A stretch of DNA of 50,961 nt from Candidatus Omnitrophota bacterium. GTDB taxonomy: Bacteria; Omnitrophota; Gorgyraeia; Gorgyraeales; Gorgyraeaceae. Shown one piece after another: positions 36,027-50,961 of this stretch. The stretch lies in NCBI GenBank assembly GCA_013202925.1, contig JABMRA010000058.1, forward strand, positions 1-50,961. The letters run 5' to 3'. Both the position numbers and the translations under genes were made by a program. The notes under the pieces were generated by a model. That model saw nothing but the letters and a program-made list of their open reading frames with translations. It was not told the DNA's origin and made no database searches. Each line of letters starts with the position of its first letter. The stretch's first letter is position 1.

Positions 36027-36046
36027 CGTCTAAATAGCACCCCAAA

Positions 36047-36087
36047 ATGCTTGCCCATTTAGTCCTGGACTGAAGTGTCAAGCATTC
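36047..36087. repeat. Imperfect palindrome of the AATGCTTGaCA...TGTCAAGCATT family (inner TTTAGTCCtgGACTgAAG)
   Basis: Read directly in the acd-etfB spacer. Outer arm AATGCTTG and inner TAGTCC/GGACT are shared with the palindrome at 42073-42105. Confidence 0.8.
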
Positions 36088-36088
36088 G

Positions 36089-37240
36089 TTAGGCGGCCTT
36101 TTCCTTTAACAGCGCATTCGCTATGATGCCGCGCTGTATCTGATTCGTGCCTTCGTATATCTGCGTGATCTTTGCGTCGCGCATATACTTCTCAATAGGA
36201 TAATCCCTCATGTAGCCATAGCCGCCGAAAAGCTGCACGCAGTCGGTCGTGACCTTCATTGCCATGTCTGATGCGAAAACTTTTGCTATTGCGGAATCCT
36301 TGGAGACCTTCTTGACGCCGGCGTCTATCATCCTCGCGCAGGCGTATATCAATGCCCTTGCTGCCTCGATCTCCGTGGCCATGTCCGCCAGCATAAACTG
36401 CACGCCCTGGAACGAAGAGATGCTTTTCCCAAATTGCCTGCGCTCCTTAACGTACCCAACGGTTAAATCCAGCGCGCCCTGCGCAATGCCAAGCGCCTGA
36501 GAAGCCACGCCCGGCCTTGACTGGTCGAATGTCTTCATTGCCACGATAAATCCCATGCCCTCTTTGCCCAAGAGGTTCTCCTTGGGGATCTTGCAGTCTG
36601 TAAAGACAAGTTCTCTTGTGGCAGACGCGCGTATGCCCATTTTATCTTCCTTCTTCCCAAACTCAAATCCCTCTGTGCCTTTTTCAACGATAAATGTGGC
36701 TGCGCCGCGCGCGCCCTTTGAGCGGTCCACCGAGGCCACTACTGTATAGACCTCCGCCTCTCCGCCGTTTGTAATCCACTGCTTGGTGCCGTTTAATACA
36801 TAATGGTCGCCTTTTTTCGCGGCTGTAGTCGCAACAGCCGCTGCATCGCTACCTGCGCCTGCCTCGGTCAATGCAAATGCCGCCAGTTTTTTTCCTTTGG
36901 CTATGTCAGGAAGATATTTCTGCTTCTGTTCGTCGCTGCCGAACAGGATGATCGGATATGTCCCGAGCGCAGTCGCAGCCAATGCCAGCGAAATTCCGCC
37001 ACAGGCCTTGGACAACTCCTCTGTCGCGATCACCAGGTCCATTGAGCCGCCGCCAGTGCCGCCGTATTTCTCCTCGATGTAGATGCCGAAGAGGTCGCTG
37101 TCTGACAGGACCTTTACGATGTCCCACGGAAACGTGCCCTCAACATCATACTGGGCAGCAACAGGCCTGATCTTCTCTTTTGCAATCTGCCTCGCTAAAT
37201 CTCGAATCATTATCTGTTCTTCGGTTAATAGATAATCCAT
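36089..37240 (-). CDS. Acyl-CoA dehydrogenase (short-chain / butyryl-CoA dehydrogenase type)
   Basis: 383 aa, typical ACAD N/M/C organisation. The C-terminal YEGTNQIQR motif places the catalytic Glu as in Bcd/SCAD. Confidence 0.9.
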   Translation of the reverse strand: MDYLLTEEQIMIRDLARQIAKEKIRPVAAQYDVEGTFPWDIVKVLSDSDLFGIYIEEKYGGTGGGSMDLVIATEELSKACGGISLALAATALGTYPIILFGSDEQKQKYLPDIAKGKKLAAFALTEAGAGSDAAAVATTAAKKGDHYVLNGTKQWITNGGEAEVYTVVASVDRSKGARGAATFIVEKGTEGFEFGKKEDKMGIRASATRELVFTDCKIPKENLLGKEGMGFIVAMKTFDQSRPGVASQALGIAQGALDLTVGYVKERRQFGKSISSFQGVQFMLADMATEIEAARALIYACARMIDAGVKKVSKDSAIAKVFASDMAMKVTTDCVQLFGGYGYMRDYPIEKYMRDAKITQIYEGTNQIQRGIIANALLKEKAA

Positions 37241-37251
37241 GACCTGCCTCC

Positions 37252-38235
37252 CTATTTTATATTATAGACCAATGTCTTTGCTTTGCCTTCGCGGACAATA
37301 TCTACATTTAGCGCCTTGATATTTCTATCTGACTTCAGATCCATGCATACCTTGAATATGCCGTAGAGCGTGTTGACCGGCCGGCCGTTTATGCCCTTGA
37401 TCAGATCGCCCTGTTTTATGCCGGTCCTTTCTGCAAGCGCCGCAACAGCCAGGTTCTGAACCAGGAACCCTTCTCTATTTAAAACAACATCCCCTAATCC
37501 GCAATTGAATTTCAAACTCGGGCCTTCCCCAAATCTAAACTGGGGCCTGACGCCTTTTATCACCGAGACGAGCGTCTCTTCTGTGTTGGAAATGGCCTCG
37601 GCCGCGCTCTTTTTGTCAACGGCCCAGGCATCACGCCCGACCTTCTCGATCTTTATATTTTCAAAAAGCCCTGCCTTGATCTTTTTGCTGTCGCTGTTTC
37701 CGGCCCGGGGGGATTTAAACATCTCCATTTCCTCCCCTGGAAGATCCTTTAATAAGGCGTCCCTGTCGTATGCCTTTCCAAGCACTATCCTGCCGCCTTC
37801 CATATCCATGACAATAAAATCTTCTGCGCCGCCTTTGCCGGATTCCCTGGAATCCTTATATCTGTATTCCAGGACCGCTGACTCCACTGTCTTTTCAAAG
37901 ATTATCTCAGCGCCCTCCAGCGGGATCCGCTCGCCCGGATTTACCGTATAATTCTCTTCTGAATTAACGCCTGTCAGTATAAGCATGTCTTTCTTTATAT
38001 CCTTTATGCGCAGGCAGTTTGTTATGTCGCTATTGGAACAAAATATATCGCCCTTGGTATACAGCCTTTTTTTTCCGCCATCCATAATAGCGACTGCGTA
38101 CCGGGCAGGTTCCCCGTCTGTAATGGTCCCGACTACGCCTGCGTCATCGCCGCCCCTCGCATCTCCTGCAGCGGCAAAGGAACCTAATATGAAAGATAGC
38201 ATTAATATTGTAACTATATATCTTAAATGGCGCAT
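37252..38235 (-). CDS. GspC-like secretion system protein: N-terminal signal/anchor, HR-like domain, C-terminal PDZ domain
   Basis: PDZ-like LAERTGIKQGDLIKGINGRPVNTLYGIF at the C-terminus and an HR-like YAVAIMDGGKKRLYTKGDIF near the N-terminus. Directly downstream of the secretin. Confidence 0.5.
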   Translation of the reverse strand: MRHLRYIVTILMLSFILGSFAAAGDARGGDDAGVVGTITDGEPARYAVAIMDGGKKRLYTKGDIFCSNSDITNCLRIKDIKKDMLILTGVNSEENYTVNPGERIPLEGAEIIFEKTVESAVLEYRYKDSRESGKGGAEDFIVMDMEGGRIVLGKAYDRDALLKDLPGEEMEMFKSPRAGNSDSKKIKAGLFENIKIEKVGRDAWAVDKKSAAEAISNTEETLVSVIKGVRPQFRFGEGPSLKFNCGLGDVVLNREGFLVQNLAVAALAERTGIKQGDLIKGINGRPVNTLYGIFKVCMDLKSDRNIKALNVDIVREGKAKTLVYNIK

Positions 38236-38244
38236 GTCTTTTTG

Positions 38245-38272
38245 ATTATATCAATTATTTCCCGTTCGTCAA
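38245..38272 (-). promoter_or_regulatory. sigma70-type promoter TTGACG-16 nt-TATAAT, ending 9 nt before the ATG at 38235
   Basis: Minus strand reads TTGACGaacgggaaataattgaTATAATcaaaaagacATG, with no SD. Confidence 0.45.
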
Positions 38273-38308
38273 GTCAAAACGTGCTGTCTGCCACCCAGGA
38301 CAGCATAA

Positions 38309-40315
38309 CTACTCATACCTCACCACTACACTGAACTCTGCCTCGTCTTTTTTCATTGTCCGCGGAAATGCAGGGAATGGCGCGACCTGTTTGACGCAAT
38401 TGACTGCGGAGCGGACAAGCGTCAAATCCGGATTGTTCAATACAACAGGGCCCCTTGTTACAAAACCCTCTTTATCCACTGTAAACTGCAGATCCACCTC
38501 GCCTTTGAGGCCGGAGACATCCTGACGGGCTGCCGCGGCATTTATCTCGTCTCTTATTGCCAGGAAGTAATCCTCGTAAGGCGTCCTTCCCCTGACAGGG
38601 GAACTGGCTGATTTTTTCCTTGTCCTGTATCGAGGCTCGGGTCCTTTTGTGGAACGCGCAAGAGAGATGGTCTCCCATTGCTGCTTCGGCCTGGTCCTGC
38701 GCGCAGCATGGCCTCTGTCCTCTCTTGCCTCTGCCGGTTTCCCATCAAGCATCTTTGAAGCGTCAAATTTTAAATCATCCGACTTTTCGATATTGCCATA
38801 TGCCTTTTTCTTCTTCCATTCGTCGAGATAAAACTGCGCCTCCCCTGTTGTCCTATCCCCCTCTATGATATGCGGCGTAAGGAATATCACGAGCTCTGTC
38901 TTTTCCTTGCTCTTTCCTGTCGTGGAAAATAATTTTCCCAGGAGAGGGATGTCGGAGAGAAAGGGCACCTTTTCCTTGTGGTCCACTATGGTATCCTTCA
39001 TCAGGCCGCCTATTATGAGCGTGGTATTGTCTTTGACAAGCACCGTGGTCTCTACCTCGGACGTGGTGACATACGGGACAACGGTACGGGTCGAGCCGTC
39101 GGGATTCGTCAATGTAACTGTCTTTGTGGGATCCGCAGTGCTCACCTCTGGTCTTATCTTCAACTTTATATAGCCCTCTCTGTTTATCTCAGGCGTGACC
39201 TTGAGCCGCACGCCCACGTCGACAAACTGGACATGGTCTGTGGTGTGGTATGTGCCGCCCGAGGTGGTCGTTACATCACTCGTGACATAGACCTCTTTGG
39301 CGCCTACCAGGATCTTTGCCTCTTCTCTATCGGCTACGGTGATCCGCGGCCTTGAAAGCACATTGGTCTCGCCAAATGTCTTGAGAAGGCTTATCACTGT
39401 TGCGTAGTTTCCGCCCACGGAAGCGATCGTCAGGGTGCTCGGCGTGGTGCCTGAGAGGCCGGCAGAGATATTCGTATTGGCTGTCACGCGCACGTCTGCC
39501 ATCTGGGCCACATCTGCCCAGTCAATGCCGTAACTGTATTTATCCGCGAGCGTCACCTGGATAATATAGGCGTCTATGACCACCTCGCGTGTCTTCTCGT
39601 CAAATGCCTCTATCACATTTTTGATATCCTCTATCTTCGCAGGCGTATCCTGCACCACCACCTTATTTGTCCTTTCGTCAAATCTTATACTGCCTATGTC
39701 CGGTGAGACCATCTTCTCCAATTTATCCTTTATGGGCTCGGCCTTTGCGTAATCGAGAGGGAAGATCTCTGTGGCCAGCTGAACGTCCATCTCTGAGATG
39801 GCATCCGTCATCTGCTTTATATTCTCGGCGTTATCTATCAGGACTATTGTATTGGAGCGGTCGTCCGGGATGATCTTTCCGAGTTTGCTTTTCATCTCTT
39901 TGATGCCCTTTGTCACTTCAGACGCACTGGCGTAATCGAGCTTTACGATCTCTGTCTTGGCCTTGTCCCTGAACCTCCTGCCGTGCAGCTTCTCATATTT
40001 TCCATTGGTCATGATGGTTATAAGCGTGCCTTCCTGTTCGTAGGCCAGGCTGTTTGTCGAGACGATTATGTCCAGGGCATCCATGACCTCCACGTCCCTG
40101 ACATAAAGCGTTACCGTGCCCTTCACGTCTTTATCGGCAACTATGTTCAGCCCGCTTTTCTGGGACAGGATCTTCAGGACATCCTTTATGTCCATGCCCT
40201 TCAGGTCCAAAGAGATCAATTCTGCCTGGTATTCGTATTGCGCCGTCGCGATGGGTATCGCTGAAAAAATGGATATGGAAAATACGAGCGCACACACAAT
40301 GATCCTCTTTACCAT
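38309..40315 (-). CDS. Secretin (GspD/PilQ/MshL family) fused to a C-terminal TonB_C-like domain
   Basis: Start moved to the ATG at 40315 (AAGGAGG 5 nt upstream; signal peptide MVKRIIVCALVFSISIFSAIPIATA). Contains an N0/STN-like domain, two N1 repeats and a secretin core (VLSRPRITV..., VPFLSDIPLLGKLF, ELVIFLTPHII), followed by a ~90-aa basic linker and a ~91-aa TonB_C-like end. Confidence 0.85.
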   Translation of the reverse strand: MVKRIIVCALVFSISIFSAIPIATAQYEYQAELISLDLKGMDIKDVLKILSQKSGLNIVADKDVKGTVTLYVRDVEVMDALDIIVSTNSLAYEQEGTLITIMTNGKYEKLHGRRFRDKAKTEIVKLDYASASEVTKGIKEMKSKLGKIIPDDRSNTIVLIDNAENIKQMTDAISEMDVQLATEIFPLDYAKAEPIKDKLEKMVSPDIGSIRFDERTNKVVVQDTPAKIEDIKNVIEAFDEKTREVVIDAYIIQVTLADKYSYGIDWADVAQMADVRVTANTNISAGLSGTTPSTLTIASVGGNYATVISLLKTFGETNVLSRPRITVADREEAKILVGAKEVYVTSDVTTTSGGTYHTTDHVQFVDVGVRLKVTPEINREGYIKLKIRPEVSTADPTKTVTLTNPDGSTRTVVPYVTTSEVETTVLVKDNTTLIIGGLMKDTIVDHKEKVPFLSDIPLLGKLFSTTGKSKEKTELVIFLTPHIIEGDRTTGEAQFYLDEWKKKKAYGNIEKSDDLKFDASKMLDGKPAEAREDRGHAARRTRPKQQWETISLARSTKGPEPRYRTRKKSASSPVRGRTPYEDYFLAIRDEINAAAARQDVSGLKGEVDLQFTVDKEGFVTRGPVVLNNPDLTLVRSAVNCVKQVAPFPAFPRTMKKDEAEFSVVVRYE

Positions 40316-40337
40316 AACTGCCTCCTTAAATGAGGCC

Positions 40338-40360
40338 ATCATCCGCCTTAGGCGGATGAT
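40338..40360. repeat. 10-bp perfect hairpin ATCATCCGCC-tta-GGCGGATGAT
   Basis: Read directly. The CATCCGCC...GGCGGATG core is shared with the palindrome at 42200-42237. Confidence 0.85.
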
Positions 40361-40364
40361 TCGG

Positions 40365-40443
40365 CCGAATTTGACCCCCCCCTGTTTCGTTTTGTTTCGT
40401 TTTACTCAACAAAACGAAACAAAACGGGGAGGGGTAAGTTCGG
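40365..40443. repeat. About 79-bp long palindromic intergenic element, copy 1 (GAATTTGAC-C8-TGTTTCGTTTTGTTTCGTTTT-actcaac-AAAACGAAACAAAACGG-GGAGGGG-TAAGTTCGG)
   Basis: Second copy at 50882-50958 at roughly 90% identity. Differences between the copies are compensatory in the stems. Confidence 0.9.
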
Positions 40444-40447
40444 TCAA

Positions 40448-40482
40448 ATGAGTTATGTCAATCAAAGATTGACATAACTCAT
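40448..40482. repeat. Perfect 16-bp-arm hairpin ATGAGTTATGTCAATC-aaa-GATTGACATAACTCAT, 8 nt downstream of the preceding stop codon
   Basis: Read directly. A related hairpin lies at 50819-50853. Confidence 0.9.
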
Positions 40483-40490
40483 GACCTCTC

Positions 40491-40991
40491 TTATATTTTT
40501 AATTCTATCTCTTCTCCTTTATATTCCAGTATCACTGCGCTTTCCTTTATATCAGAAAGCGTGAATTCTCCGAAACTATCGCCGCGATAAAGAAAATATG
40601 TCTTGCTGGCGGCCTTGTCTTCTATCACGGCCTGGTCTTTATCTCCCGCAATGATGCCCAACAGGCTCAGGTCTTCGGCCAGGTCTTTTTTTGAAACAGC
40701 GGATTTTTCTTCATACTCATAGACATCCTCGTCAAACTCAAATGCATCAGGCAGGGCCTCTGCAGCATCTTTCCCTTCCGGCAGATCAAGGCCAAGCCCC
40801 ACATCTATCTCAGGCATCTTATAATTAAAGGTAAATACGTCAACTAAAAAAATCGCCAGCACCAGTATTATCAGGCCGATTAGAATGCCATTTATTTTTG
40901 TAAAGACCTTGAGATCCTTTTTGAACCGCAGTTTTCCCTGGGCCTGCTTAATAAGATCCAGGAGCTTTTTTTCAGGGGTCATGCCGGTCAT
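40491..40991 (-). CDS. GspB/PilP-like bitopic protein (166 aa)
   Basis: Single TM (INGILIGLIILVLAIFLV), an acidic linker, and a C-terminal HR/PilP-like beta domain (LLGIIAGDKDQAVIED...YFLYRGDSFGEFTLSDIKESAVILEY). Translationally coupled to the exeA-like gene, as exeB is to exeA. Confidence 0.5.
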   Translation of the reverse strand: MTGMTPEKKLLDLIKQAQGKLRFKKDLKVFTKINGILIGLIILVLAIFLVDVFTFNYKMPEIDVGLGLDLPEGKDAAEALPDAFEFDEDVYEYEEKSAVSKKDLAEDLSLLGIIAGDKDQAVIEDKAASKTYFLYRGDSFGEFTLSDIKESAVILEYKGEEIELKI

Positions 40992-41818
40992 TGGATTAAC
41001 TCCACCTCCCTGTCGCGCTCTACTATTTCCATTATTATATCTTCTTCCACTGTATTTCTATCCTTCATCACAAGTTCTTCCAGGGCGCTGTGGCAGAGAT
41101 TGGTTATCTTGCGCGGATATCCCTGGGTGTGCTGGTAGATCAGATCCGTTGCCTTTTCAGTAAACAGCTTCTCTCCTGAATCGTAGCCTGCCTGTTTTAA
41201 TCTGAAGTCTATCATGTCCTTTGTCTCGTTCACATCCAGGGGATTGAGGATATATTTCAGGCTGACCCTGTCCGCAAAATTCCTTATCCTCTGCAGCCTG
41301 GGCAGGAGTTCCATCTGGCCTATGACCACAAGCTGGAGGAGTTTATATTCGTTTGTCTCGTAATTCAGGAGTGTCCGCAGGATTTCCAGGGACGACGGCG
41401 TTAGTTTTTGCGCCTCGTCAATGACGAGCACCACGATATTTTCCTCATCAACGCATTTTTTGAACAGGAATCTCTCTATGGCCTCTTTGTAATCCAGGAC
41501 AGAGCGGAAGGCCGGCCTTATGCCGAACACCTTTGCCAGATACGTAACGAATTGGAACTCTGAATCATAGGCAGGATCGAATATCATGTGCGAGATAATC
41601 CCTGTTTCCTTGCTCAATACCTGGATCAGCGCCCTTGACAGGGTCGTCTTTCCAGTGCCAACGTCGCCCAGGATAAGGCTCATGCCCCTTTTTAACCTGA
41701 CCGCTATTTCGAGCCGCTGGAGCGCCTGCCTGTGGGATATGGACGGGTAAAGAAAGTAAGGGTCTGGGCTTGTTGAAAACGGCTCTTTATTGAGTTTGAG
41801 CACCTTGTAATACGGCAT
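40988..41818 (-). CDS. ExeA/GspA/MshM-like AAA ATPase (ATPase domain only)
   Basis: Walker A GDVGTGKTTL, Walker B VLVIDEAQ, 276 aa. No peptidoglycan-binding C-terminal domain. Confidence 0.75.
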   Translation of the reverse strand: MPYYKVLKLNKEPFSTSPDPYFLYPSISHRQALQRLEIAVRLKRGMSLILGDVGTGKTTLSRALIQVLSKETGIISHMIFDPAYDSEFQFVTYLAKVFGIRPAFRSVLDYKEAIERFLFKKCVDEENIVVLVIDEAQKLTPSSLEILRTLLNYETNEYKLLQLVVIGQMELLPRLQRIRNFADRVSLKYILNPLDVNETKDMIDFRLKQAGYDSGEKLFTEKATDLIYQHTQGYPRKITNLCHSALEELVMKDRNTVEEDIIMEIVERDREVELIQ

Positions 41819-41825
41819 ACCTGCT

Positions 41826-42050
41826 TCAGCCTCCTATGAGTTCCTTTATCTCTGCCAGGGACTTGTGCTCCCTGCGCAATGCGCGTATCTTCTGCAGCAT
41901 CTCCAGGGTCGTATTGTCAAAATATCTAAATTTTGTCTCCGGGCTTCTGCCTATCTCCCTTATCAGACCAAGATTAAGGTAATACTTTATGGTATAAATA
42001 GTATGTCCGCTCAACCTCGCCAGATCCTTTATCAGATATATACAATCCAT
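41826..42050 (-). CDS. MerR-family helix-turn-helix protein (74 aa, DNA-binding domain plus a short helix)
   Basis: IYLIKDLARLSGHTIYTIKYYLNLGLI is a MerR-type wHTH. Start set to the ATG at 42050 (AGGAG 9 nt upstream) rather than the track's GTG at 42080, which lies inside a hairpin. Confidence 0.7.
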   Translation of the reverse strand: MDCIYLIKDLARLSGHTIYTIKYYLNLGLIREIGRSPETKFRYFDNTTLEMLQKIRALRREHKSLAEIKELIGG

Positions 42051-42072
42051 GCCGCATCTCTCCTGTGAAATG

Positions 42073-42105
42073 CTTGACACTTTAGTCCTGGACTAAAGTG
42101 TCAAG
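42073..42105. promoter_or_regulatory. Perfect palindrome CTTGACACTTTAGTC-ctg-GACTAAAGTGTCAAG in the 5' UTR of the MerR-like gene (candidate operator or RNA hairpin)
   Basis: 15-bp perfect arms, read directly. It lies between the predicted promoter (42156-42184) and the SD. Confidence 0.6.
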
Positions 42106-42155
42106 TTTATGCTGTCTGAGTAGATAGCGATAGCGCACTCTCTATTTAGAGAGTA

Positions 42156-42184
42156 AGTATACCTTATGATTCCCGTGCTGTCAA
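42156..42184 (-). promoter_or_regulatory. Near-consensus sigma70 promoter TTGACA-17 nt-TATACT internal to the secretion cluster
   Basis: Minus strand reads TTGACAgcacgggaatcataaggTATACT, with the -35 at 42179-42184 and the -10 at 42156-42161. Confidence 0.6.
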
Positions 42185-42199
42185 GGTAAGCACGCGCCA

Positions 42200-42237
42200 A
42201 AATGCTTGACATCCGCATAGGCGGATGTCAAGCATTT
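42200..42237 (-). terminator. Perfect 17-bp-arm hairpin AAATGCTTGACATCCGC-atag-GCGGATGTCAAGCATTT overlapping the gspM-like stop codon (terminator or attenuator candidate)
   Basis: Read directly. On the minus-strand RNA the stem ends in UUU followed by U. It lies just upstream of the internal promoter. Confidence 0.5.
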
Positions 42238-42745
42238 AGATTATTGGTTTGGATAAGATCAGGGTGCCTTTTAGGCGGGAAGGAACTTCTCCTGTGCCTC
42301 TGAGGTCGAACTTCTTTATGCTGATGTATGCGGGTGATTTGATAAGGCCCGCGGCAAACCTATTGATGGCTGAAAAATCGCCCTCTAACTGCAGCTCGAT
42401 GACGTACTCCTTGTAGAGCCCTTGTTGAATCGCTGGACTTGGCCTTATATTGGCTGTCTTGATGCCCGAAGAATCCGCCTCTTTCTCTATGTAGCCCAGG
42501 ATTTCTGACATGCCCTTGAGGGACCGCGCATAGGTATTGTATTGATCGATGATGACATCCTTGTCTTTTAATAACCTCAGGCCCTTTTTGAATTCTATGC
42601 TTTTTGCGATTATCTCGCTGTCGAGGCTTCTCCATTTTCTGAAAAAGGGCCTGAATACAAGGCCGTACACTATAGCCAGACCCAAAAAAGCCACAGCTAC
42701 AATAAAGACATATCTCTCGCGCCTTGAAAGATTCAAGCGGATCAT
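42236..42745 (-). CDS. PilO/GspM/MshJ-like bitopic assembly protein
   Basis: N-terminal TM (YVFIVAVAFLGLAIVYGLV), coiled-coil region, and a C-terminal ferredoxin-like YKEYVIELQLEGDFSAINRFAAGL pattern typical of PilO. Confidence 0.55.
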   Translation of the reverse strand: MIRLNLSRRERYVFIVAVAFLGLAIVYGLVFRPFFRKWRSLDSEIIAKSIEFKKGLRLLKDKDVIIDQYNTYARSLKGMSEILGYIEKEADSSGIKTANIRPSPAIQQGLYKEYVIELQLEGDFSAINRFAAGLIKSPAYISIKKFDLRGTGEVPSRLKGTLILSKPII

Positions 42746-43890
42746 AGGTCCTCACCCGTGTTTAAGCGGCAATGGATATTGAAATCAATAAAATCCTCAC
42801 CTTTTACATTTTTCTTGGCAGCGTATTCGACCTCCGCGCTTTTAAAATATTTTAACCCTTCAAGGGTTTTTACAAATGCGAGGGTAGAAGGCATGCCTTT
42901 CGATGTCCCCTTATAAAACACATCCCCCTTGCCATTGTAATCCAGGCCGGATATCGAGATATCCGCAGGTATTAGACTATAGAAACGCTGCAGCATCTCG
43001 ACGATAAATAGCCCCTCTTCCGTGCGTTCCCTGGCAACATCTGTCCTTTTGATGAACTTATTCAGCCGTTCTATCTCGGACTGCATCCGGACCACCCGCG
43101 GCGAAAACACCCCTAGAAATCTCTTTTTCTCATAGATCTTAAAAGAGAGCGCTGCAAAAGATAGTATTACAACAAATGCTGTAAGGGAATACGTTACCAG
43201 GTTTGCCTTTCTCTTCTCCAAGCGCATCCTTTTGCCGCTGATCTCCCCAGGCAAAAGGGTGATCTTTGCCGGAAGGCCCGCAGCTGCCAGGTCGTCGGTA
43301 TATTCGCAAAAACTTGCCGGAATAGTAAAATGTTTTTCTATATGCGGCCTCGCCTCCTGGAGATCCACGCTTGATGAATACGTTACAACAATATTTTCAA
43401 TCGCAGGCGCGGCCTTTGCCTTTTCATAGGCCAGGACCGAGCGGTCTATCTCTTCCAAAAACCTCTCGCTATTTTTGAATCCCCTTGAAAAGATAGGCCG
43501 GGCCTTATCTATTACCATTATCTCTGAATCCTTCTCTCCGATATGGATGACGAAATTTACCTTATCCTGCGCCAGCACGCCTTTTTTTAACAAGAATAGA
43601 TATAATAATTCGGTATGCAGGCGCACATCATCCACATGGCCCCTGCCTGAGGTGACATCCTGGACTGTGGCCTTATTCGCAACCGCCAGCATGATGGATG
43701 AAAAACCAGGCCTGTACGAGCCGAGGATCCGGTATCCCACGACCATCTCCTGCCTCGGATACGGGATATCCTTTACGGCCTGGAAACCCACCATATTCCT
43801 GATCTCAGGATCATCAGTAGAAGGTATATCTACAAACCTAAGGAAGACCAAATGCCGCGGGATTACGAGGATGTTTTTTTCTTTGGCCAT
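42742..43890 (-). CDS. PilM-PilN fusion (GspL/MshI-like) assembly protein
   Basis: Start set to the ATG at 43890 (GGAAGGA SD; TGATG overlap with the gspK stop). Cytoplasmic PilM-like half, TM (LVTYSLTAFVVILSFAALSF), periplasmic PilN-like half. Confidence 0.55.
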   Translation of the reverse strand: MAKEKNILVIPRHLVFLRFVDIPSTDDPEIRNMVGFQAVKDIPYPRQEMVVGYRILGSYRPGFSSIMLAVANKATVQDVTSGRGHVDDVRLHTELLYLFLLKKGVLAQDKVNFVIHIGEKDSEIMVIDKARPIFSRGFKNSERFLEEIDRSVLAYEKAKAAPAIENIVVTYSSSVDLQEARPHIEKHFTIPASFCEYTDDLAAAGLPAKITLLPGEISGKRMRLEKRKANLVTYSLTAFVVILSFAALSFKIYEKKRFLGVFSPRVVRMQSEIERLNKFIKRTDVARERTEEGLFIVEMLQRFYSLIPADISISGLDYNGKGDVFYKGTSKGMPSTLAFVKTLEGLKYFKSAEVEYAAKKNVKGEDFIDFNIHCRLNTGEDL

Positions 43891-44714
43891 CAATATTCCT
43901 TCCAGTGATAGATCCTGCCTGTCCTGTCTATTACTGCCTCTATGCCCCTGAACGACTCTTTGTCTTCTGAGAAAAATGACTTTGCCCATATCCTGAAGCA
44001 GCTGGATCGCACGCTAAATAAGGCAGGGTCCAGCCCTGCTATCATACTGATATCGCTTGCGTCCCTGAATATGCCGTCGTCCTCAGTGCCCTGGTTTCCG
44101 TCAGGGCCTCTCCTGTATTCCCATACACCCTGAACCAGGCCCCGGTCTCCCAGAACTGCATAGAGTACCTTCTCGGTCGCGGTATTTATATTGACCCTGG
44201 CATCTGCACCTCTATGGATCGTGACAGAATCCCTGATCAACGAAAAGACCTCGCGCGTCATGTCCTCTACCAAAAATAATTCTTCAATGAATTCAAAGCC
44301 CTCAGCGCCCTTTTTATTCCTGTAATCCAGGATCTTTCCGGCAATGTAGCCGTCCATGCCAAGCCTGGTAAACTGGGCCTCCTGCAAGGTGCTGCTGTTC
44401 AGATTGAGCCGGCTGTCTTCGTCAGAGGCACCGTAGAATACGGTGTCGTCCCTCAATATGAGTTTTTTGGGATCTCCCTCGTCCCTGCACCAGTCCTCAT
44501 TCAGGCTGTCATACGAATTTGCATCCCTGGCAATCTCCGTAAGCATCTTCATGACGCCTGCCCTTGCCAGATACGTGGACTTTAGGCTGCGGGATTCGTG
44601 CCTGGCCAATTTTACGTCACTGGCGGCGCGACGGGAAAGGGCTATGCTCAATATCGCAAGGATGAGCAATATCCACAGGGTAAATATCAGGATGCTGCCT
44701 TTTTGCCTTGTCAT
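43890..44714 (-). CDS. gspK: GspK-like minor pseudopilin
   Basis: GSILIFTLWILLILAILSIAL N-terminus without the conserved Glu5, and the helix-hairpin-helix-like VNINTATEKVLYAVLG typical of T2SS protein K. Confidence 0.7.
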   Translation of the reverse strand: MTRQKGSILIFTLWILLILAILSIALSRRAASDVKLARHESRSLKSTYLARAGVMKMLTEIARDANSYDSLNEDWCRDEGDPKKLILRDDTVFYGASDEDSRLNLNSSTLQEAQFTRLGMDGYIAGKILDYRNKKGAEGFEFIEELFLVEDMTREVFSLIRDSVTIHRGADARVNINTATEKVLYAVLGDRGLVQGVWEYRRGPDGNQGTEDDGIFRDASDISMIAGLDPALFSVRSSCFRIWAKSFFSEDKESFRGIEAVIDRTGRIYHWKEY

Positions 44715-45304
44715 TTTTCTCCAAGTTCTCCGTGCGGGAGGAAGATCACTTTATTATAAAATCCCTTGCCCTCGTCTGCTGCCATGGAAATCCTCACGCC
44801 GGAAGGAAGCGCGCCTTTTTTCTTGCCGTCCCAAAACGCCTGCCATTCAAATTCATTAGATGGTCCTTCTGCCTTGTATGCATAGGCAAATTTTATCTCG
44901 TTCACTAAAGGGGAGACCTTTTTAATTTTTTCTTTGGTCCCTTCTATGTCTTCAGAAAAATCCCTCTCTTTTCTTACCAGTTCCTTGAGCCCGGCGCGGC
45001 TGTCTATGTTTACACTATAGGTAATGATACAGGCCCTGTCTCTGTCTCCTGCCGGGATGGTTAACGGAAAAACCATTTCTTTGTCAGTGCCGCTGAACGG
45101 TATGCCGGAAAAAAAGAAGGTCTCCTTCAATTCCTTCTCTACCCTTAAAAGGGCCAGTCTGACTTTCTGAAGAGACCTCTCATCCTCGCTCCTGCGCCAC
45201 GTCTTTATCCCCAGATTAAAGGCGCTGTAAACAGCGATGATCACTATTGTAAATATTGTAATGCTGACTATGAGTTCGATAATGGTAAATGCGCTGCGCT
45301 TCAT
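44711..45304 (-). CDS. Minor pseudopilin (GspJ-like) with a prepilin-type N-terminal methylation motif
   Basis: RSAFTIIELIVSITIFTIVIIAVY, 197 aa. Confidence 0.65.
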   Translation of the reverse strand: MKRSAFTIIELIVSITIFTIVIIAVYSAFNLGIKTWRRSEDERSLQKVRLALLRVEKELKETFFFSGIPFSGTDKEMVFPLTIPAGDRDRACIITYSVNIDSRAGLKELVRKERDFSEDIEGTKEKIKKVSPLVNEIKFAYAYKAEGPSNEFEWQAFWDGKKKGALPSGVRISMAADEGKGFYNKVIFLPHGELGEK

Positions 45305-45672
45305 TTGAAATATGTCATGATCGAGAGGTCGTATTGCGCGTTTCTTTTGTCCCAGAGGATCTTCAGCGTGACCTCATCGAGCTCCTCTTTCTCCAATTCC
45401 ACCACATCCATGCGCCAGGAAAAGGCCGAGTCAAAACCGCTCAATGCCCCGGCTGACGAACCTTTTTTTCTTTCAGCATTGCCTGCCTCGTAGATCTTCT
45501 CTTCGAGCAAAAGGCCTGCCTTAAAATAATCCTCTGAAGAATCTATTGCCCTGAGGGATATTACAAAAGAATGCAGCGCCAGCAGGATCCCTACAGAAAG
45601 GATAGCTACCGACACCATTACCTCCAGCAATAAAAATCCCTTATTCTTTTTCTTCCCAGCTGGCAATGTCAT
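45301..45672 (-). CDS. Minor pseudopilin (GspI/GspH-like)
   Basis: KGFLLLEVMVSVAILSVGILLAL prepilin motif. Start trimmed to the ATG at 45672 (or TTG at 45666). It still overlaps gspG by about 30 nt in another frame. Confidence 0.6.
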   Translation of the reverse strand: MTLPAGKKKNKGFLLLEVMVSVAILSVGILLALHSFVISLRAIDSSEDYFKAGLLLEEKIYEAGNAERKKGSSAGALSGFDSAFSWRMDVVELEKEELDEVTLKILWDKRNAQYDLSIMTYFK

Positions 45673-46054
45673 CCCCGCCGCCTTGTTTGCCGTCAGGGCC
45701 GTAGGAATACAGGTCATAGTCCGGACTGTGGTCGCCCGGTGATGCATACACATACGGATTTCCCCAGGGGTCGCTCGCCTGTCTTTTAAGATACGGCCCT
45801 TTCCAGTTTCTGACGGAAGCCGCTTTTGTGCTCAAACCAGACAGGCCTTCTTCTGTAGTCGGATATCGTCCATTGTCCAGCTCGTACAGATCGAGCGCCA
45901 CAGAGATATTGGCGTGTATATCTGCGGTGGCTGCGGATATCCTTGCCTCTTCTGAGCGGCCCACGAGCCGCGGCATCACCATTGAGACAAGCACACCTAT
46001 AATAATCACAACGAGCATCAGTTCGATCAATGTAAAACCTCGGCTAGATTTCAT
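45641..46054 (-). CDS. gspG: Major pseudopilin GspG
   Basis: RGFTLIELMLVVIIIGVL, ...DLYELDNGRYPTTEEGL...WKGPYL...DPWGNPYVY is the classical GspG signature, 137 aa. Confidence 0.9.
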   Translation of the reverse strand: MKSSRGFTLIELMLVVIIIGVLVSMVMPRLVGRSEEARISAATADIHANISVALDLYELDNGRYPTTEEGLSGLSTKAASVRNWKGPYLKRQASDPWGNPYVYASPGDHSPDYDLYSYGPDGKQGGGDDIASWEEKE

Positions 46055-46082
46055 TGAAACCCCCCTTTTTAGCCTTAAGTTA

Positions 46083-46124
46083 TAAGTTGTAAGCTATATT
46101 TAACCTCTTACAGCTTACAACTTA
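46083..46124. repeat. 13-bp perfect inverted repeat TAAGTTGTAAGCT / AGCTTACAACTTA (16-nt loop) in the gspF-gspG spacer
   Basis: Read directly. Flanked by further TAAGTT/TAAGCT-type direct repeats. Confidence 0.85.
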
Positions 46125-46143
46125 AAGCTTATAGCTATTTCTA

Positions 46144-47340
46144 TTAATGCGCGGCTAGCGATATCTGGAATACAGGCAGGAGCATTGAGAGGACGATGAA
46201 GCCCACGATAAGGCCCATGGCCAAGATCAGGACCGGCTCCAAAAGAGAAGACATTACCTTGATGGCCCTGTCAGTCTCTGTCTCGTAACTCTTTGCCACT
46301 CTTAAAAGCATCTTGTCCAAATGGCCTGCCTCTTCTCCGACTGCTGCCATGTTCACCACGAACCGCGGAAATGCGGAATTGTTCCTTATTGCCGCGGACA
46401 GCAAACTGCCTGCCTTGACATCCGCGTAAATGCGATTTATGTCCTGCCTGACAGTTTCATTGGCCGCCACTTCAGACGTTATTTTCAATGAATAGAGTAT
46501 CGGCACGCCGCTCTTTAAAAGCATGGAGAGCGTCCTCGAAAACCTCGCGAGTTCCACATCCTTTACCAATGCACTGATAATAGGTAATTTAGACACTGCC
46601 CTGCCTGAACCGCCTGTGCTTTTAATAAAAAATATCCCTACTCCTGCCAGCGCCAGCAATAAGATCCAGAAACGCCTTACGAAATCGCTCAGCCCGATGA
46701 TGATCCTCGTGGGAAGCGGCAGGACCTCGCCCATTTCAACAAACACACTGGCCAGCCTCGGTATGACAAACGCCATTAAAATAAATATCGTCACAATGCC
46801 CACTGCCGCCATCAGCGCAGGATATGCCAGGGCCATACGGATCCTGGACCTGATCAACGCCTCCTTGTCCAGAAAATCCGAGATATTGGACAGGGCCTCG
46901 CTCAACGCGCCCGAGGCCTCGCCAGCACGCACCAGGCTTACGTAGAGATTGGAAAAGATATGGGGATGGCTGGCCAGGGATTCTGAAAACGTGCTGCCCT
47001 GTTTTATCCTGTCTCTTACAGTGCGTATGATTTCTTTTAGATACGGGTGGGTTGTCTGCGTCTCAATGATACTCAGCGCGTCAAAAAGCGCCAGCCCTGA
47101 ATCCACAAGCTCTAAAAGCTGCCTTGTAAAATTTGCCAGGTCCCTGACTGCGACCCGCTGATTTGAAAAAAAAGCGTCTCTGGATTTTCTGTCAGCTGCA
47201 GAAGGCGCTTCTCTGATCCATATAGGATGACAGCCGGATGCGAGCAATCTATTTACAGCGGCAGTCTCCGAATCTGCCTCAATGTTTCCCTCTAAAACCT
47301 CGGACGGTCCTTTTTTTGCCTTGAAGAGAAAACGGCCCAT
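46144..47340 (-). CDS. gspF: Type II secretion / type IV pilus platform protein GspF/PilC
   Basis: Two T2SSF repeats and three TM segments, 398 aa. Confidence 0.9.
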   Translation of the reverse strand: MGRFLFKAKKGPSEVLEGNIEADSETAAVNRLLASGCHPIWIREAPSAADRKSRDAFFSNQRVAVRDLANFTRQLLELVDSGLALFDALSIIETQTTHPYLKEIIRTVRDRIKQGSTFSESLASHPHIFSNLYVSLVRAGEASGALSEALSNISDFLDKEALIRSRIRMALAYPALMAAVGIVTIFILMAFVIPRLASVFVEMGEVLPLPTRIIIGLSDFVRRFWILLLALAGVGIFFIKSTGGSGRAVSKLPIISALVKDVELARFSRTLSMLLKSGVPILYSLKITSEVAANETVRQDINRIYADVKAGSLLSAAIRNNSAFPRFVVNMAAVGEEAGHLDKMLLRVAKSYETETDRAIKVMSSLLEPVLILAMGLIVGFIVLSMLLPVFQISLAAH

Positions 47341-47353
47341 GCGGGAGTGAAAG

Positions 47354-49051
47354 TCAATCTTCTTTGGTGACCCTTATTACCTCGTTCATAGTGGTCAGAC
47401 CCTGTTTTATTTTTTCCCATCCATCCATGCGAAGCGTGCGCATGCCTGATCTCAGGGCCTTATTTTTTATCTGATCGGACGATGCCCTGCGAAGCACCAG
47501 ATCGCGGATATCCTCGTTCATAAACAGGAATTCATAGATGCCGGTGCGGCCCTTGTAGCCGCTAAACTTGCAGGCCTCGCAGCCCTTGCCTTCGTAAATA
47601 ACCAAGTCTTTTGGATTTCTGTCTATGCCAAATTCTTTTAACACCTTTTTATCCGGTTTCTTTTCGACCCTGCACTCCGGGCAGAGAAGCCGCACGAGTC
47701 GCTGGGCAATGAAGCACTCCACGGAACTTGACACGAGGTACGGCTCAACGCCCATGTCCAAAAGGCGCGTAATAGCGCCCGCGGCATCATTCGTATGCAA
47801 GGTGCTGAACACCAGGTGTCCTGTCAGGGCAACGCGGATAGTGGTCTCCACTGTCTCAAAGTCCCTCACCTCTCCCACCATCATGACGTCAGGGTCGTGG
47901 CGAAGCATGGAGCGGAGCCCTGTTGCAAAACTCAAACCTATGCGTGGGTGGATCTGGACCTGCGTCACGCCTTTTAATTGATATTCTATGGGGTCTTCTA
48001 TTGTTATGATCTTTTTGTCTTTTTGATTTATTTTGGACAGGCACGAATAGAGCGTGGTGGTCTTACCGCTGCCCGTAGGCCCTGTTACAAAAATAATGCC
48101 GTGGGGCTTGTGTATAAGTCTCCCCAGTCGCGCGAGGTCAAAATCGGAAAGCCCTAATCTTTTCAGGCTGTACAGCATACTGCCCGAAAGGAGTCTGATA
48201 TCAACGCTCTCGCCGAATTGCGTTGGCAGGATAGAGATCCTCAGGTCCAGCTCCTCTCCGCCCATTTTTATCTTGACGCGGCCGTCCTGGGGGAGCCTGT
48301 GCTCTGCTATATCCAGGCCAGCCATGATCTTTATCCTTGATGTGATAGCGGACCGGAAATATTTTATATTCTGCGGGATCGGGATATCGTATAGTATGCC
48401 GTCCACCCTGTATCTCACCCTCAATTCATCCTCGTAGGGCTCGATATGGATATCGGTGGCCCTGTCCCTGACTGCCTGGCCAAGGATCTGATTTACAAAT
48501 CTTATCATAGACGCGTCCTCTGCGACATCTTCTATGTCTTCTGTCCTTGCCCTGGACAATAAGATCTCCTCGATGTCTTTTCCGGCATGCATGATCTTTT
48601 CTATTGTCTCCGCGCCTACGCCGTAATATCTCCTGATGGCATCGACTATGTCTTGCCCGCCCGCCAGGACAGCATTGATATCGCAGCCCAACAGCAGCCT
48701 TAAGTCATCTAGTATCTCTATGTCCAAGGGGTCTGTAAGCGCGACGGTCAGCGCATTGTCATTAAATTTTACCGGCATGAATCTATAGTGGCAGGCAAAC
48801 CTGGCAGGGACCTTTTCAAAGACCCTCGTATCGATGCTGACGTCCTTCATCATCACGTACGGGATATTCAATTGCTCGGAAAGCGCAGGGTACAATGCCT
48901 CTTCCTTGATAAGGCCCAATTTTATCAGGGTAAGGCCGAGAAACTCGCCTGTCTTTTGATGCCCTTCCAGGCCAGTTGCCAGTTGGCTACGCGAGATCAG
49001 GCCTTTTTGAACCAGGGTCTCGCCCAGAAATACAGTCCTTCTGACCAGCAT
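47354..49051 (-). CDS. gspE: Type II secretion / type IV pilus assembly ATPase GspE/MshE with an N-terminal T2SSE_N (MshEN-like) domain
   Basis: Walker A VTGPTGSGKTTTLY, Asp/His boxes, tetracysteine CPEC...CEAC. The N-terminus carries two LGxxLVxxGLIxxxxL motifs. Confidence 0.92.
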   Translation of the reverse strand: MLVRRTVFLGETLVQKGLISRSQLATGLEGHQKTGEFLGLTLIKLGLIKEEALYPALSEQLNIPYVMMKDVSIDTRVFEKVPARFACHYRFMPVKFNDNALTVALTDPLDIEILDDLRLLLGCDINAVLAGGQDIVDAIRRYYGVGAETIEKIMHAGKDIEEILLSRARTEDIEDVAEDASMIRFVNQILGQAVRDRATDIHIEPYEDELRVRYRVDGILYDIPIPQNIKYFRSAITSRIKIMAGLDIAEHRLPQDGRVKIKMGGEELDLRISILPTQFGESVDIRLLSGSMLYSLKRLGLSDFDLARLGRLIHKPHGIIFVTGPTGSGKTTTLYSCLSKINQKDKKIITIEDPIEYQLKGVTQVQIHPRIGLSFATGLRSMLRHDPDVMMVGEVRDFETVETTIRVALTGHLVFSTLHTNDAAGAITRLLDMGVEPYLVSSSVECFIAQRLVRLLCPECRVEKKPDKKVLKEFGIDRNPKDLVIYEGKGCEACKFSGYKGRTGIYEFLFMNEDIRDLVLRRASSDQIKNKALRSGMRTLRMDGWEKIKQGLTTMNEVIRVTKED

Positions 49052-49125
49052 GCCATTTTTCTCCGGTTCCTGTTGCGCGGATTATGTAATGAGATGGAAA
49101 TCCTTCGGGTCTTCATGTAAATTAG

Positions 49126-49154
49126 ATTTTAACATAAAGCAGCGGGCGTGACAA
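49126..49154 (-). promoter_or_regulatory. sigma70-type promoter TTGTCA-17 nt-TAAAAT upstream of gspE
   Basis: Minus strand reads TTGTCAcgcccgctgctttatgtTAAAAT, with the -35 at 49149-49154 and the -10 at 49126-49131, about 75 nt upstream of the gspE ATG. Confidence 0.5.
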
Positions 49155-49188
49155 CATAAAAGCAGACACAAAAACCTGCCGGATTTGC

Positions 49189-49219
49189 TTTACACTTTTG
49201 ACATTGTTAAAAGTGTAAA
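49189..49219 (-). terminator. Hairpin TTTACACTTTT / AAAAGTGTAAA (9-nt loop) 3 nt downstream of the fabF stop
   Basis: 11-bp perfect arms, read directly. A T-run follows only after about 14 nt, so intrinsic-terminator status is uncertain. Confidence 0.4.
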
Positions 49220-49221
49220 CT

Positions 49222-50463: not shown

Positions 50464-50475
50464 AACCGACTCCTT

Positions 50476-50527: not shown

Positions 50528-50554
50528 CTCTATGCCAAATCTCTGGCAGCTCTA

Positions 50555-50958: not shown

Positions 50959-50961
50959 ACA

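Follow-up and report, generated by a model that had tools for sequence, protein, structure and literature searches.

The window analysed here is one whole contig of 50,961 nt (JABMRA010000058.1) from an uncultured Omnitrophota bacterium, and statements of absence refer to this window alone. Thirteen consecutive open reading frames (ORFs) on the minus strand fill 12 kb of it, at 37252-49154, in the order E-F-G-I-J-K-L-M-merR-A-B-D-PDZ. Their products combine parts known from type II secretion systems (T2SS), type IVa pili (T4aP) and mannose-sensitive haemagglutinin (MSH) pili. The original prediction for this DNA had listed the thirteen genes, their order and their strand, and had concluded that the architecture fits no established system. 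All gene calls were checked with Pfam and NCBIfam models, and family profiles, Foldseek, AlphaFold2 (AF2) models, Hhalign and tblastn were used for further tests. The family profiles come from Omnitrophota orthologues, and their reference set comprised the Gsp and Hof proteins of E. coli, the proteins of a Comamonas cluster and an MSH-type cluster from Desulfobacterota. Each gene assignment is borne out by Pfam or NCBIfam support, among them the T2SS hallmarks GspG, GspK and a PDZ-bearing GspC-like protein, and the PilM-N, PilO and ExeA-like assignments all hold in profile searches. The conclusion drawn from them had to be revised, since the cluster probably encodes a T2SS of the Xps type known from Xanthomonas. 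Loci fetched from relatives carry labels of the form L001 to L047, and L034 represents a deep Omnitrophota lineage.

What kind of filament would such a cluster make? The major subunit, gspG (45641-46054, 137 aa), passes the GspG model TIGR01710 with 143.8 bits against a cut-off of 88.85. Its family profile gives 145 bits to E. coli GspG, compared with 26 to PpdD and 29 to MSH-type pilins, and no other pilin scores above 29. The protein has no Cys-bounded D-region. The GspI-like gene (45301-45672), whose start was corrected to the ATG at 45672 as read from the sequence, encodes the leader MTLPAGKKKNKG followed by FLLLE; it has the N_methyl motif and matches the GspI model TIGR01707 with 26.5 bits and the XpsI model with 23 bits, and its family profile gives 32 bits to the corresponding protein of Comamonas and 20 bits to E. 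coli GspI. The GspJ-like gene (44711-45304, 197 aa) also has a prepilin N-terminus (N_methyl), with 23 bits to the GspJ model TIGR01711 and family-profile scores of 33 bits for Comamonas J and 25 bits for E. coli GspJ. The GspK-like gene (43890-44714, 274 aa) encodes a protein with no Glu at +5 which matches the GspK model NF037980 with 51 bits as well as HHH_3. GspK is a member of the helix-hairpin-helix superfamily. A role in DNA uptake, as the HHH_3/ComEA matches of K might imply, was rejected because the K family profile matches GspK proteins only (E. coli 47 bits, Comamonas 49 bits). The matches of I, J and K are weak, but they are best against T2SS references.

Pfam scans of every large ORF found neither a GspH-sized pseudopilin nor a prepilin peptidase (peptidase A24) in the window, as had been predicted. 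Is the absence of GspH an old or a recent feature? In L034 the pseudopilins are G, an H-type protein of 154 aa, I, J and a 367-aa K, and the last passes Pfam T2SSK_1st at 75.8 bits and reaches 111 bits with the GspK model. An H-sized pseudopilin is also kept in L032 and L037, and it is absent in the main clade, to which the window belongs. Because deep Omnitrophota lineages retain G-H-I-J-K, the missing GspH is best read as a lineage-specific loss in the main clade.

The secretin gene (38309-40315, 668 aa) starts at 40315 after correction, with an ATG following an AAGGAGG site. It encodes N0/STN, two Secretin_N domains, the secretin domain, a linker and TonB_C (Pfam). Among the NCBIfam models GspD scores highest (TIGR02517, 276 bits; cut-off 351), followed by PilQ (256 bits) and MshL (202 bits). 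Searches of the Protein Data Bank (PDB) sequences gave 147 bits for GspD (5wln) and 127 bits for PilQ, and the family profile ranks E. coli GspD (213 bits) above HofQ (174 bits) and MshL-like proteins (159 bits). The TonB C-terminal-like domain (38312-38605) scores 28.7 bits against a cut-off of 24.6, and its profile finds the TonB C-terminal domains 6sly and 5lw8 at 8e-5. The linker on its 5' side is basic and contains Pro in the window, and it is K/P/E-rich in most orthologues. The TonB_C domain is kept throughout the main Omnitrophota clade and in L032, and is absent in L034-L037 and in MSH-type secretins. We found no description of a secretin-TonB_C fusion in the literature.

Two smaller proteins may connect the platform to this secretin. 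The GspC-like PDZ protein (37252-38235, 327 aa) has an N-terminal transmembrane (TM) segment or signal, a beta domain resembling the homology region (HR) of GspC (about residues 32-110), a linker and a C-terminal PDZ domain. Its PDZ_2 and PDZ matches at 250-322 are below the Pfam cut-offs, and NF041515 GspC_delta gives 38 bits. In a Foldseek search its AF2 model (predicted local distance difference test, pLDDT, 70.7) resembles the PDZ domains of EpsC and PulC, with a TM-score of about 0.5. The B-like bitopic protein (40491-40991) stands in the XpsC/GspB position and has a single TM segment, and its T2SSB match of 18.7 bits is marginal and below threshold. Its family shares an invariant cytoplasmic motif (TPExKLLxLI) and the TM segment; a linker, acidic and variable, leads from the latter to a conserved HR-like domain of about 55 residues at the C-terminus. 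The three top matches of its profile in the PDB are GspC HR domains, the best of them (3oss_C) weak at E 0.011, and residues 32-88 of the PDZ protein align with the B-like HR domain (Hhalign, E 0.0025). The cluster seems to have two connectors with HR domains, the B-like protein in the XpsC position and the PDZ protein with the HR+PDZ layout typical of GspC. Both assignments are plausible but weak.

The motor and platform genes are less clearly of one kind. The gspE-like assembly ATPase (47354-49051, 565 aa) has the predicted MshEN-type N-terminus (T2SSE 440 bits, MshEN 68 bits in Pfam). Its best NCBIfam model is GspE (TIGR02533, 612 bits; cut-off 630), followed by PilB with 594 bits. With the PDB sequences, its core scores 438 and 425 bits to PilB and 412 bits to GspE. 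The family profile gives 567 bits to Comamonas GspE, 561 bits to MshE-like proteins and 463 bits to E. coli GspE, a protein without the N-terminal domain, and the ATPase stands at 45-55% from PilB, GspE and MshE-like ATPases alike. A phylogeny of GspE had been proposed with the original prediction, and rough neighbour-joining (NJ) trees of the ATPase core were built. One taxon sampling placed Omnitrophota with PilB at 100% support, whereas with Comamonas GspE added the deep nodes had 6-16% support. The trees were therefore dropped as evidence for placement, being unstable between samplings. Given the near-equal PilB and GspE scores and the unstable trees, E is treated as uninformative for classification. 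The c-di-GMP motif model NF053729 matches E with 52 bits, above its cut-off of 38. In the MshEN region neither RLG motif keeps its Arg in any Omnitrophota orthologue, with Phe in its place in the window and Leu or Ile in orthologues, and some orthologues (508 aa) are without RLG motifs altogether. A gene for a GAF-GGDEF diguanylate cyclase (28863-29996, plus strand) adjoins smc, in the same arrangement in L001 and L003; its product could provide input to the MshEN-type N-terminus of GspE, though the RLG Arg is replaced.

The gspF-like inner-membrane platform protein (46144-47340, 398 aa) has two T2SSF domains and scores 376 bits with the GspF model TIGR02120 (cut-off 424) compared with 281-300 bits for PilC models, and its family profile gives 330 bits to MshG-like proteins and 309 bits to GspF. 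The next platform gene, L, is a PilM-PilN fusion (42742-43890, 382 aa), its start corrected to 43890 on the basis of homologues that are all 370-390 aa long. It has a PilM-like cytoplasmic domain, a TM segment at residues 229-247 and a PilN-like periplasmic domain, with weak PilM and PilN matches in domain scans. In the AF2 model (pLDDT 83.7) the cytoplasmic domain, of about 210 residues, is actin-like and the periplasmic domain ferredoxin-like, with one long TM helix between them. PilM is the top Foldseek match (E 5.6e-13), and the cytoplasmic domains of GspL, EpsL and PulL match at TM-scores that, normalised by target, are the same (0.44-0.49); for the periplasmic domain the match is XcpY, a GspL, at 0.71. 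By sequence, PilM is the sole match of the L profile in the PDB, and the family profile gives 55 bits to the MSH-type MshI and 26 bits to the PilN-domain L of Comamonas. The topology and size fit GspL. The model thus makes L a GspL by architecture, still PilM/PilN-like by sequence. The L034 orthologue is longer (476 aa) and matches PilM_2 and PilN. The GspM equivalent (42236-42745, 169 aa) is a PilO-like protein with an N-terminal TM segment, scoring 30.9 bits with PilO (cut-off 22) and 19.6 bits with T2SSM, and its L034 orthologue matches PilO, T2SSM_b and GspM_XpsM. Homologues of PilMNOP are present in T2SS and MSH systems alike (PMC6668835).

The ATPase A (40988-41818, 276 aa) is an AAA+ protein of the MshM/ExeA family (AAA_22 62 bits, TIGR03015 189 bits). 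It has no TM segment and AAA_22 is its sole domain, so the predicted lack of the peptidoglycan-binding domain in the ExeA-like protein is correct. The A and B-like genes share a 4-nt overlap. With the family profile, the MshM-like protein of the Desulfobacterota locus L047 scores 291 bits. The predicted mosaic of T2SS and MSH affinities is thus real at the sequence level: by family profiles G, I, J, K and D go to T2SS, L and A to MSH-type systems.

Might the cluster then make a surface pilus of the T4aP or MSH kind, used for adhesion to host or prey, with the GspG-like protein as a true pilin? E has the MshEN N-terminus and a core scoring highest to PilB, L resembles PilM/MshI in sequence, and A is MshM-like, with its nearest non-Omnitrophota relatives found in Desulfobacterota clusters of the MSH order I-J-K-L-M-E-G. 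MSH loci also have no prepilin peptidase (PMC6668835), and for Omnitrophota abundant T4aP and an epibiotic or predatory life have been reported (PMC10066038). The filament subunits point the other way, however, as GspG passes TIGR01710 and has no Cys-bounded D-region, and the minor subunits are of the I/J/K type including GspK. So do the secretin, for which GspD ranks above PilQ and PilQ above MshL, the HR+PDZ GspC-like protein, and a gene order which is that of T2SS and Xps and not that of MSH or T4aP. Pfam and NCBIfam scans of the window found no PilA-type pilin, no PilT-type retraction ATPase and no separate pilM-N-O-P-Q operon. We consider a surface pilus unlikely.

To which known system does the cluster come nearest? 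Its E-F-G-(H)-I-J-K-L-M order is the gspE-M order of E. coli K-12. Xps is an experimentally studied T2SS with the gene order XpsE, F, G, H, I, J, K, L, M, C (formerly N), D, a prepilin peptidase gene located elsewhere, and separate promoters for E, for F and for G-D (PMC11981180). The Omnitrophota cluster has the same order, with a small HR-domain protein, as XpsC is, directly before the secretin, no peptidase gene in the cluster, and predicted separate promoters for E and later genes. The N-terminal domain of XpsE (2d28) is weakly matched by the GspE N-terminus, and the NCBIfam models XpsF, XpsI, XpsH and GspM_XpsM match Omnitrophota proteins. The differences are that the main Omnitrophota lineage has no GspH; that M and the HR protein are separated by an insertion of merR and the MshM-type ATPase, while Xps has no GspA/B; that the secretin carries TonB_C and an extra HR+PDZ protein stands on its own promoter; and that L is recognisably PilM/PilN-like in sequence. 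The same order is also found on a plasmid of Comamonas odontotermitis (NZ_CP083452.1), in a cluster annotated as T2SS by the NCBI pipeline PGAP: gspE, F, gspG, GspH/FimT, two pseudopilins, GspK, a 'PilN domain-containing protein', gspM, a small hypothetical protein and gspD. Its gspE is matched full length including the N-terminus, and the Omnitrophota profiles match its E (567 bits), I, J, K and L (26 bits). Unlike the Omnitrophota cluster it has GspH, has no merR, MshM-like ATPase or PDZ protein, and its secretin is 817 aa long. Compared with E. coli K-12, Comamonas and Xps, the canonical T2SS order is thus found save for the missing H and the merR-A insertion.

MSH systems (mshIJKLMNEGF plus pilins) share with the cluster the short ExeA-family ATPase MshM, the PilM/N-type MshI and PilO-type MshJ, an ATPase with an MshEN N-terminus and a locus without prepilin peptidase (PMC6668835, PMC4624765), and Desulfobacterota MSH-like proteins are the ones to which Omnitrophota A scores 291 bits and L 55 bits. 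The gene order is different, however; the pilins here are of the GspG/I/J/K type and not of the MshA type, no MshN tetratricopeptide repeat protein is found, and the secretin scores lower to MshL than to GspD. The MSH-order clusters themselves, seen in L047 (5255-14711) and about 25 other Desulfobacterota loci, comprise a 626-aa PilM-type MshI, J, K, a secretin, a 570-aa MshM with a C-terminal extension, E, G and pilins. This suggests that MSH-type pili are common in Desulfobacterota, beyond the taxa covered in PMC6668835.

Other systems share fewer features. The ExeA-ExeB (GspA-GspB) pair likewise joins an AAA+ ATPase to a bitopic protein of the class that binds the secretin N0/N1 domains, next to the secretin gene, and such A/B-type assembly pairs are a known accessory module of T2SS (PMC4098917). 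Omnitrophota A differs in having no TM segment and no peptidoglycan-binding domain, and the B-like protein matches GspB only below threshold. With the T4aP of Myxococcus, Geobacter and Pseudomonas the likeness lies in the E core, highest to PilB, the cytoplasmic domain of L, best to PilM, and the PilO match of M; the difference is that M and N are fused here, there is no PilA-type pilin and no PilT, and the order and pseudopilins are T2SS-like. Akkermansia, of the Planctomycetes-Verrucomicrobia-Chlamydiae group, has the pilus-like cluster Amuc_1098-1102; L matches NF045709 (the PilM-like Amuc_1101) with 43 bits, or 91 bits in L034, and the secretin matches NF042912 (Amuc_1098), but the scores are far below the model cut-offs of 650-750 bits.

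The view that the architecture fits no established system is therefore not supported. The order is that of the Xanthomonas Xps T2SS and of the Comamonas plasmid T2SS, the PilM-PilN fusion and the PilO-like protein correspond structurally to GspL and GspM, and an A/B-type pair is the accessory module named above. V. cholerae MshI has its closest similarity with GspL, and MshM shares 43% identity with ExeA (PMC4624765), so the GspL/MshI and ExeA/MshM families overlap. The composite appearance can be put down largely to the known kinship between T2SS, MSH and T4aP together with the Xps layout.

Another way to explain the split of affinities by part, with G, I, J, K and D going to T2SS, L and A to MSH, and E and F ambiguous, is an evolutionary chimera, in which a T2SS pseudopilin and secretin set recombined with an MSH-type platform module (MshI-like L and MshM) in an Omnitrophota ancestor, as opposed to one lineage that merely retained T4aP-like traits from its ancestors. 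The Comamonas T2SS has the same order with a PilN-domain L, however, so a PilM/N-like L in a T2SS needs no MSH donor. The family overlap described above, a uniform composition and the conservation of the cluster in all Omnitrophota lineages sampled also speak against recombination, and in comparison with Xps nothing but merR plus A is clearly inserted. A chimera is thus rather improbable.

How widely is the cluster distributed? A survey with one genome per species, anchored on ATPase A, gave 80 loci, and these and three further loci were mapped by tblastn. More than 100 secretin homologues were found at 50-71% identity, and where the source is named it is Candidatus Omnitrophota. Homologues of L and of the PDZ protein were found in Omnitrophota only, at the sensitivity used. 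The full string E-F-G-I-J-K-L-M-merR-A-B-D is present in about 20 of the fetched Omnitrophota loci, mostly with the PDZ gene next to it; the PDZ gene is lacking in four loci. In the main clade the neighbours are constant, with fab genes upstream and acyl-CoA dehydrogenase (ACAD), electron transfer flavoprotein (ETF) and smc genes downstream, and the identities are 71-81% for A, 69-83% for merR and 64-75% for E, next to 83-92% for the neighbouring ACAD. The GC content of the cluster matches the rest of the contig. Synteny, housekeeping-level identities and matching GC content indicate that the cluster is native, ancient in the phylum and under selection, and it is probably vertically inherited. 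An assembly artefact was rejected because dozens of independent assemblies have the same arrangement, and a recent import because of the native composition and the phylum-wide conserved locus.

Some relatives have shortened versions of the locus. F-G-I-J-K are lacking in L001 (5039-8217), L026 and L029, and E to J are lacking in L004; the loss of gspF-G-I-J-K or of E to J in these loci and in L033 is clean, and E/L/M, merR, A, B, D and C are kept. Such genomes may have the lost genes at another locus, or else the platform and secretin module serves a purpose of its own. Could the cluster of the window be a decaying or non-functional remnant? Signs of reduction are the lost GspH, a K of 274 instead of 367 aa and an L of 382 instead of 476 aa in comparison with deep lineages, the deletions of F-G-I-J-K in some relatives, and a repeat element inserted between B and D. 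Decay is hard to reconcile, however, with ORFs that are all intact with conserved motifs, with identities at housekeeping level across dozens of independent assemblies, and with conserved promoters and operator. A remnant is very improbable.

Taken together, the gene order, the GspG and GspK pseudopilins, the L034 components, the best models of F and D, the architecture of L and the HR proteins argue that the cluster encodes a native Xps-type T2SS of Omnitrophota. We give this reading, in which secretion itself is deduced from sequence, a probability of roughly 65%. The cluster is accordingly described as a T2SS-type machine with added parts, not as a new kind of machine. Several points weigh against a T2SS. 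The score of E is just under the equivalog cut-off (612 for 630), and those of F (376 for 424) and of the secretin (276 for 351) are below theirs. The E core is slightly nearer to the PilB of delta-proteobacterial T4aP than to Vibrio GspE, and one of the two NJ samplings grouped it with PilB. L resembles MshI in sequence and not E. coli GspL, which the L family profile does not match; A resembles the MSH-type MshM and not E. coli GspA, for which the A family profile gave no match and Hhalign aligned the P-loop only. The M, B-like and PDZ proteins have weak similarity to characterised GspM, GspB and GspC, respectively. In the window there is no prepilin peptidase, no GspH-sized pseudopilin and no secreted substrate, and the shortened loci lack the F-G-I-J-K or E to J genes. 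In the literature, a TXSScan survey of the phylum reports T4aP and Tad with no mention of T2SS (PMC10066038). As for single E. coli K-12 sequences, Hhalign comparisons with GspA, GspB, GspC and GspL returned nothing, the P-loop or a marginal HR match only, and they were discarded as a membership test for being too insensitive.

How would the machine work? Gene content, homology, synteny and promoter conservation are the observations here, and the steps of secretion, protein contact and regulation that follow are inferred, the secretion cycle from established T2SS knowledge. Hexameric GspE would dock on GspF and on the PilM-like cytoplasmic domain of L. ATP hydrolysis would then power the polymerisation of GspG, with GspI, J and K at the tip, and the resulting short pseudopilus in the periplasm would drive folded periplasmic proteins out through the secretin. 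The PilN- and PilO-like periplasmic domains of L and M would make the platform, and the two HR proteins, the B-like one and the PDZ-bearing C-like one, would tie it to the N0 domain of the secretin. The MshM-type ATPase A, translationally coupled to the B-like protein, probably binds the cytoplasmic N-terminal peptide of the latter, and the A/B pair would act in the manner of ExeA-ExeB in secretin assembly or gating. The TonB-like linker and C-terminal domain of the secretin may give in cis the anchoring to cell wall or partner that otherwise comes from the peptidoglycan-binding domain of ExeA. Finally, the 74-aa MerR-like protein probably binds two palindromes at the transcription start of its own merR-A-B-D operon.

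There is a further question, what the cluster means for the evolution of these machines. One can speculate that it represents an early-diverging T2SS lineage that retained a motor and platform of the T4aP/MSH type (a PilB-like MshEN ATPase, a PilM-PilN L and MshM), with newly invented anchoring or gating of the secretin through the fused TonB-like linker and C-terminal domain and through an ATPase-coupled HR protein. We regard this scenario as doubtful; if true, it would make the cluster a living intermediate for the origin of T2SS from pili. The combination of T2SS order and pseudopilins with a PilM/N-like L and an MshM-type ATPase in any case bears on the divergence of T2SS, MSH and T4aP. 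Three features are new: an MshM-type ATPase within a T2SS, the operator of the mini-MerR, and the fusion of TonB_C to the secretin. The last two offer hypotheses on secretin anchoring and regulation. Omnitrophota are uncultured and ultra-small, and many are thought to be predatory or parasitic. If the cluster is a T2SS, it would give them a core syntenic export route for hydrolases acting on hosts or prey. The Omnitrophota literature that was searched has no description of the cluster, and published surveys of the phylum stress Tad and type IVa pili, without this cluster (PMC10066038; 10.1101/2023.11.21.568195). A 'T2SS-like' locus adjoining giant genes is a different locus, which includes rcpC (10.1101/2023.11.21.568195). 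L003 (1-289), from Ca. Gorgyraea atricola, also encodes a protein of 2003 aa with subtilase, beta-helix, PKD and dockerin domains. Its gene lies about 1.5 kb upstream of gspE and is separated from it by a single AAA_14/DUF4143 gene. The protein may be a secreted substrate; at this position it is not conserved in the window.

We next consider the control regions. The original prediction had placed sigma70-type promoters before gspE, merR and the PDZ gene, and in a scan with a maximum score of 12 all three come up at their stated coordinates, with 10-11/12; all are conserved in relatives. Transcription would start about 7 nt past 49126, 42156 and 38245. They are the only minus-strand sites of at least 10/12 inside intergenic gaps. 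In the region as a whole, 22 promoter-like sites were found compared with 18 expected by shuffling, which is no excess. Because the total count is near the shuffle mean, the case for the three promoters rests on their intergenic position and their conservation. The gspE promoter (49126-49154, 10/12) has TTGTCA, a 17-nt spacer and a TG-extended TAAAAT; TTGTCA-N17-TGnTAnAAT is also found upstream of gspE in L005, L021, L025 and L028, and a similar site in L034 and L038. The merR-A-B-D promoter (42156-42184, 11/12) has TTGACA, a 17-nt spacer and TATACT. The PDZ-gene promoter (38245-38272, 11/12) has TTGACG, a 16-nt spacer and a TG-extended TATAAT, 9 nt from the ATG. In more than 15 loci CTTGACG..TATAAT is conserved at 9-11 nt from the ATG with no Shine-Dalgarno sequence, and this distance suggests that the mRNA of the PDZ/GspC-like protein is leaderless, a predicted feature conserved across the phylum. 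The proposed split into three transcription units is likewise supported by the comparison with relatives, which makes it a reasonable prediction.

The gspM-merR gap is the best-conserved non-coding stretch of the locus, with the motif cTTGACA-N17-TATACT. Right after the -10 box stand two tandem palindromes (42111-42154, minus strand), ACTCTCTAAATAGAGAGT and GCTATCTACTCAGACAGC, conserved phylum-wide, which are a putative operator or pair of hairpins in the 5' untranslated region (5'-UTR). As a motif the pair reads ACTCTCTA-nn-TAGAGAGT, then CTATCTA-nn-TAGATAG, and in the second palindrome both arms covary, from CTATC/GATAG to CTCTC/GAGAG. Promoter and palindromes form an ungapped motif in 31 of the 39 other Omnitrophota loci, including the deep L032, L034 and L035. 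The gene that follows (41826-42050) starts with an ATG after an AGGAGA site and encodes a MerR-like helix-turn-helix protein of 74 aa with the DNA-binding part only. It matches positions 1-66 of 69 of the MerR_1 profile (48.9 bits) and has no effector domain. Its orthologues are 49-83% identical and have the same position in 35 loci. How would such a protein act on its own promoter? MerR-activated promoters typically have a spacer of 19-20 nt. From the 17-nt spacer found here, and from the overlap of the palindromes with the site where transcription of the merR unit is expected to begin, we infer repression or autoregulation by the 74-aa protein and not activation in the manner of MerR. A role of the palindrome pair as 5'-UTR hairpins is possible. 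The operator palindrome motif occurs once only in the window, and the idea of a wider MerR regulon was dropped for this reason. We found no description of the conserved mini-MerR operator in the literature.

The hairpin and the palindromic repeats that the original prediction had noted before merR and before the secretin gene are real, with hairpins at 42073-42237 and 40343-40490. After gspM there is a perfect hairpin with 17-bp arms (42200-42237, minus strand), a possible terminator or boundary element. At operon boundaries many Omnitrophota genomes have a roughly 35-nt palindrome, AACTTTACAyTT...AArTGTAAAGTT, of which the window has TTGACA variants; sites are at 49186-49222, 42200-42237 and 42073-42105 in the window, at 8299-8329 in L003, at 9659-9691 in L010, at 9716, 13223 and 17540 in L025, and in others. 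It may be a terminator-like element or a phylum-conserved site for protein binding. A further strong hairpin (46055-46143, minus strand) fills the gspF-gspG gap directly 5' of the ribosome-binding site of gspG, with 29-nt arms, a predicted RNA fold of -29.2 kcal/mol and a z of -4.4, and it may be an element of mRNA processing or stability for the major pseudopilin.

The B-D gap (40343-40490, strand not assigned) has three hairpins, which are a copy of a dispersed palindromic repeat with a second copy at 50800-50961. The repeat is about 85 nt long with G/C-capped ends, CGAATTTGACCCCC...GGGGTAAGTTCGG, and each copy has an adjoining AGTTATGnnAATC/GATTnnCATAACT hairpin. It looks like a dispersed element of the repetitive extragenic palindromic (REP) or miniature inverted-repeat transposable element (MITE) kind, with one copy inserted between the B-like and secretin genes. 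In L001 and L003 the B-D gap is only 15-40 nt. A regulatory part for these palindromes was rejected, since a second copy lies elsewhere and orthologous loci have none, and they are incidental to the machine. A permissive Rfam scan of 36000-50961 found no known RNA family, and the hairpins matched miRNA models far below threshold. Away from the cluster, the window has a low-GC island at 14000-26000 (0.38-0.43, with about 0.49 elsewhere), which encodes glycosyltransferases, methyltransferases, a B12/radical-SAM enzyme, sugar epimerases and two large polytopic membrane proteins. This island is probably a variable surface-glycan locus.

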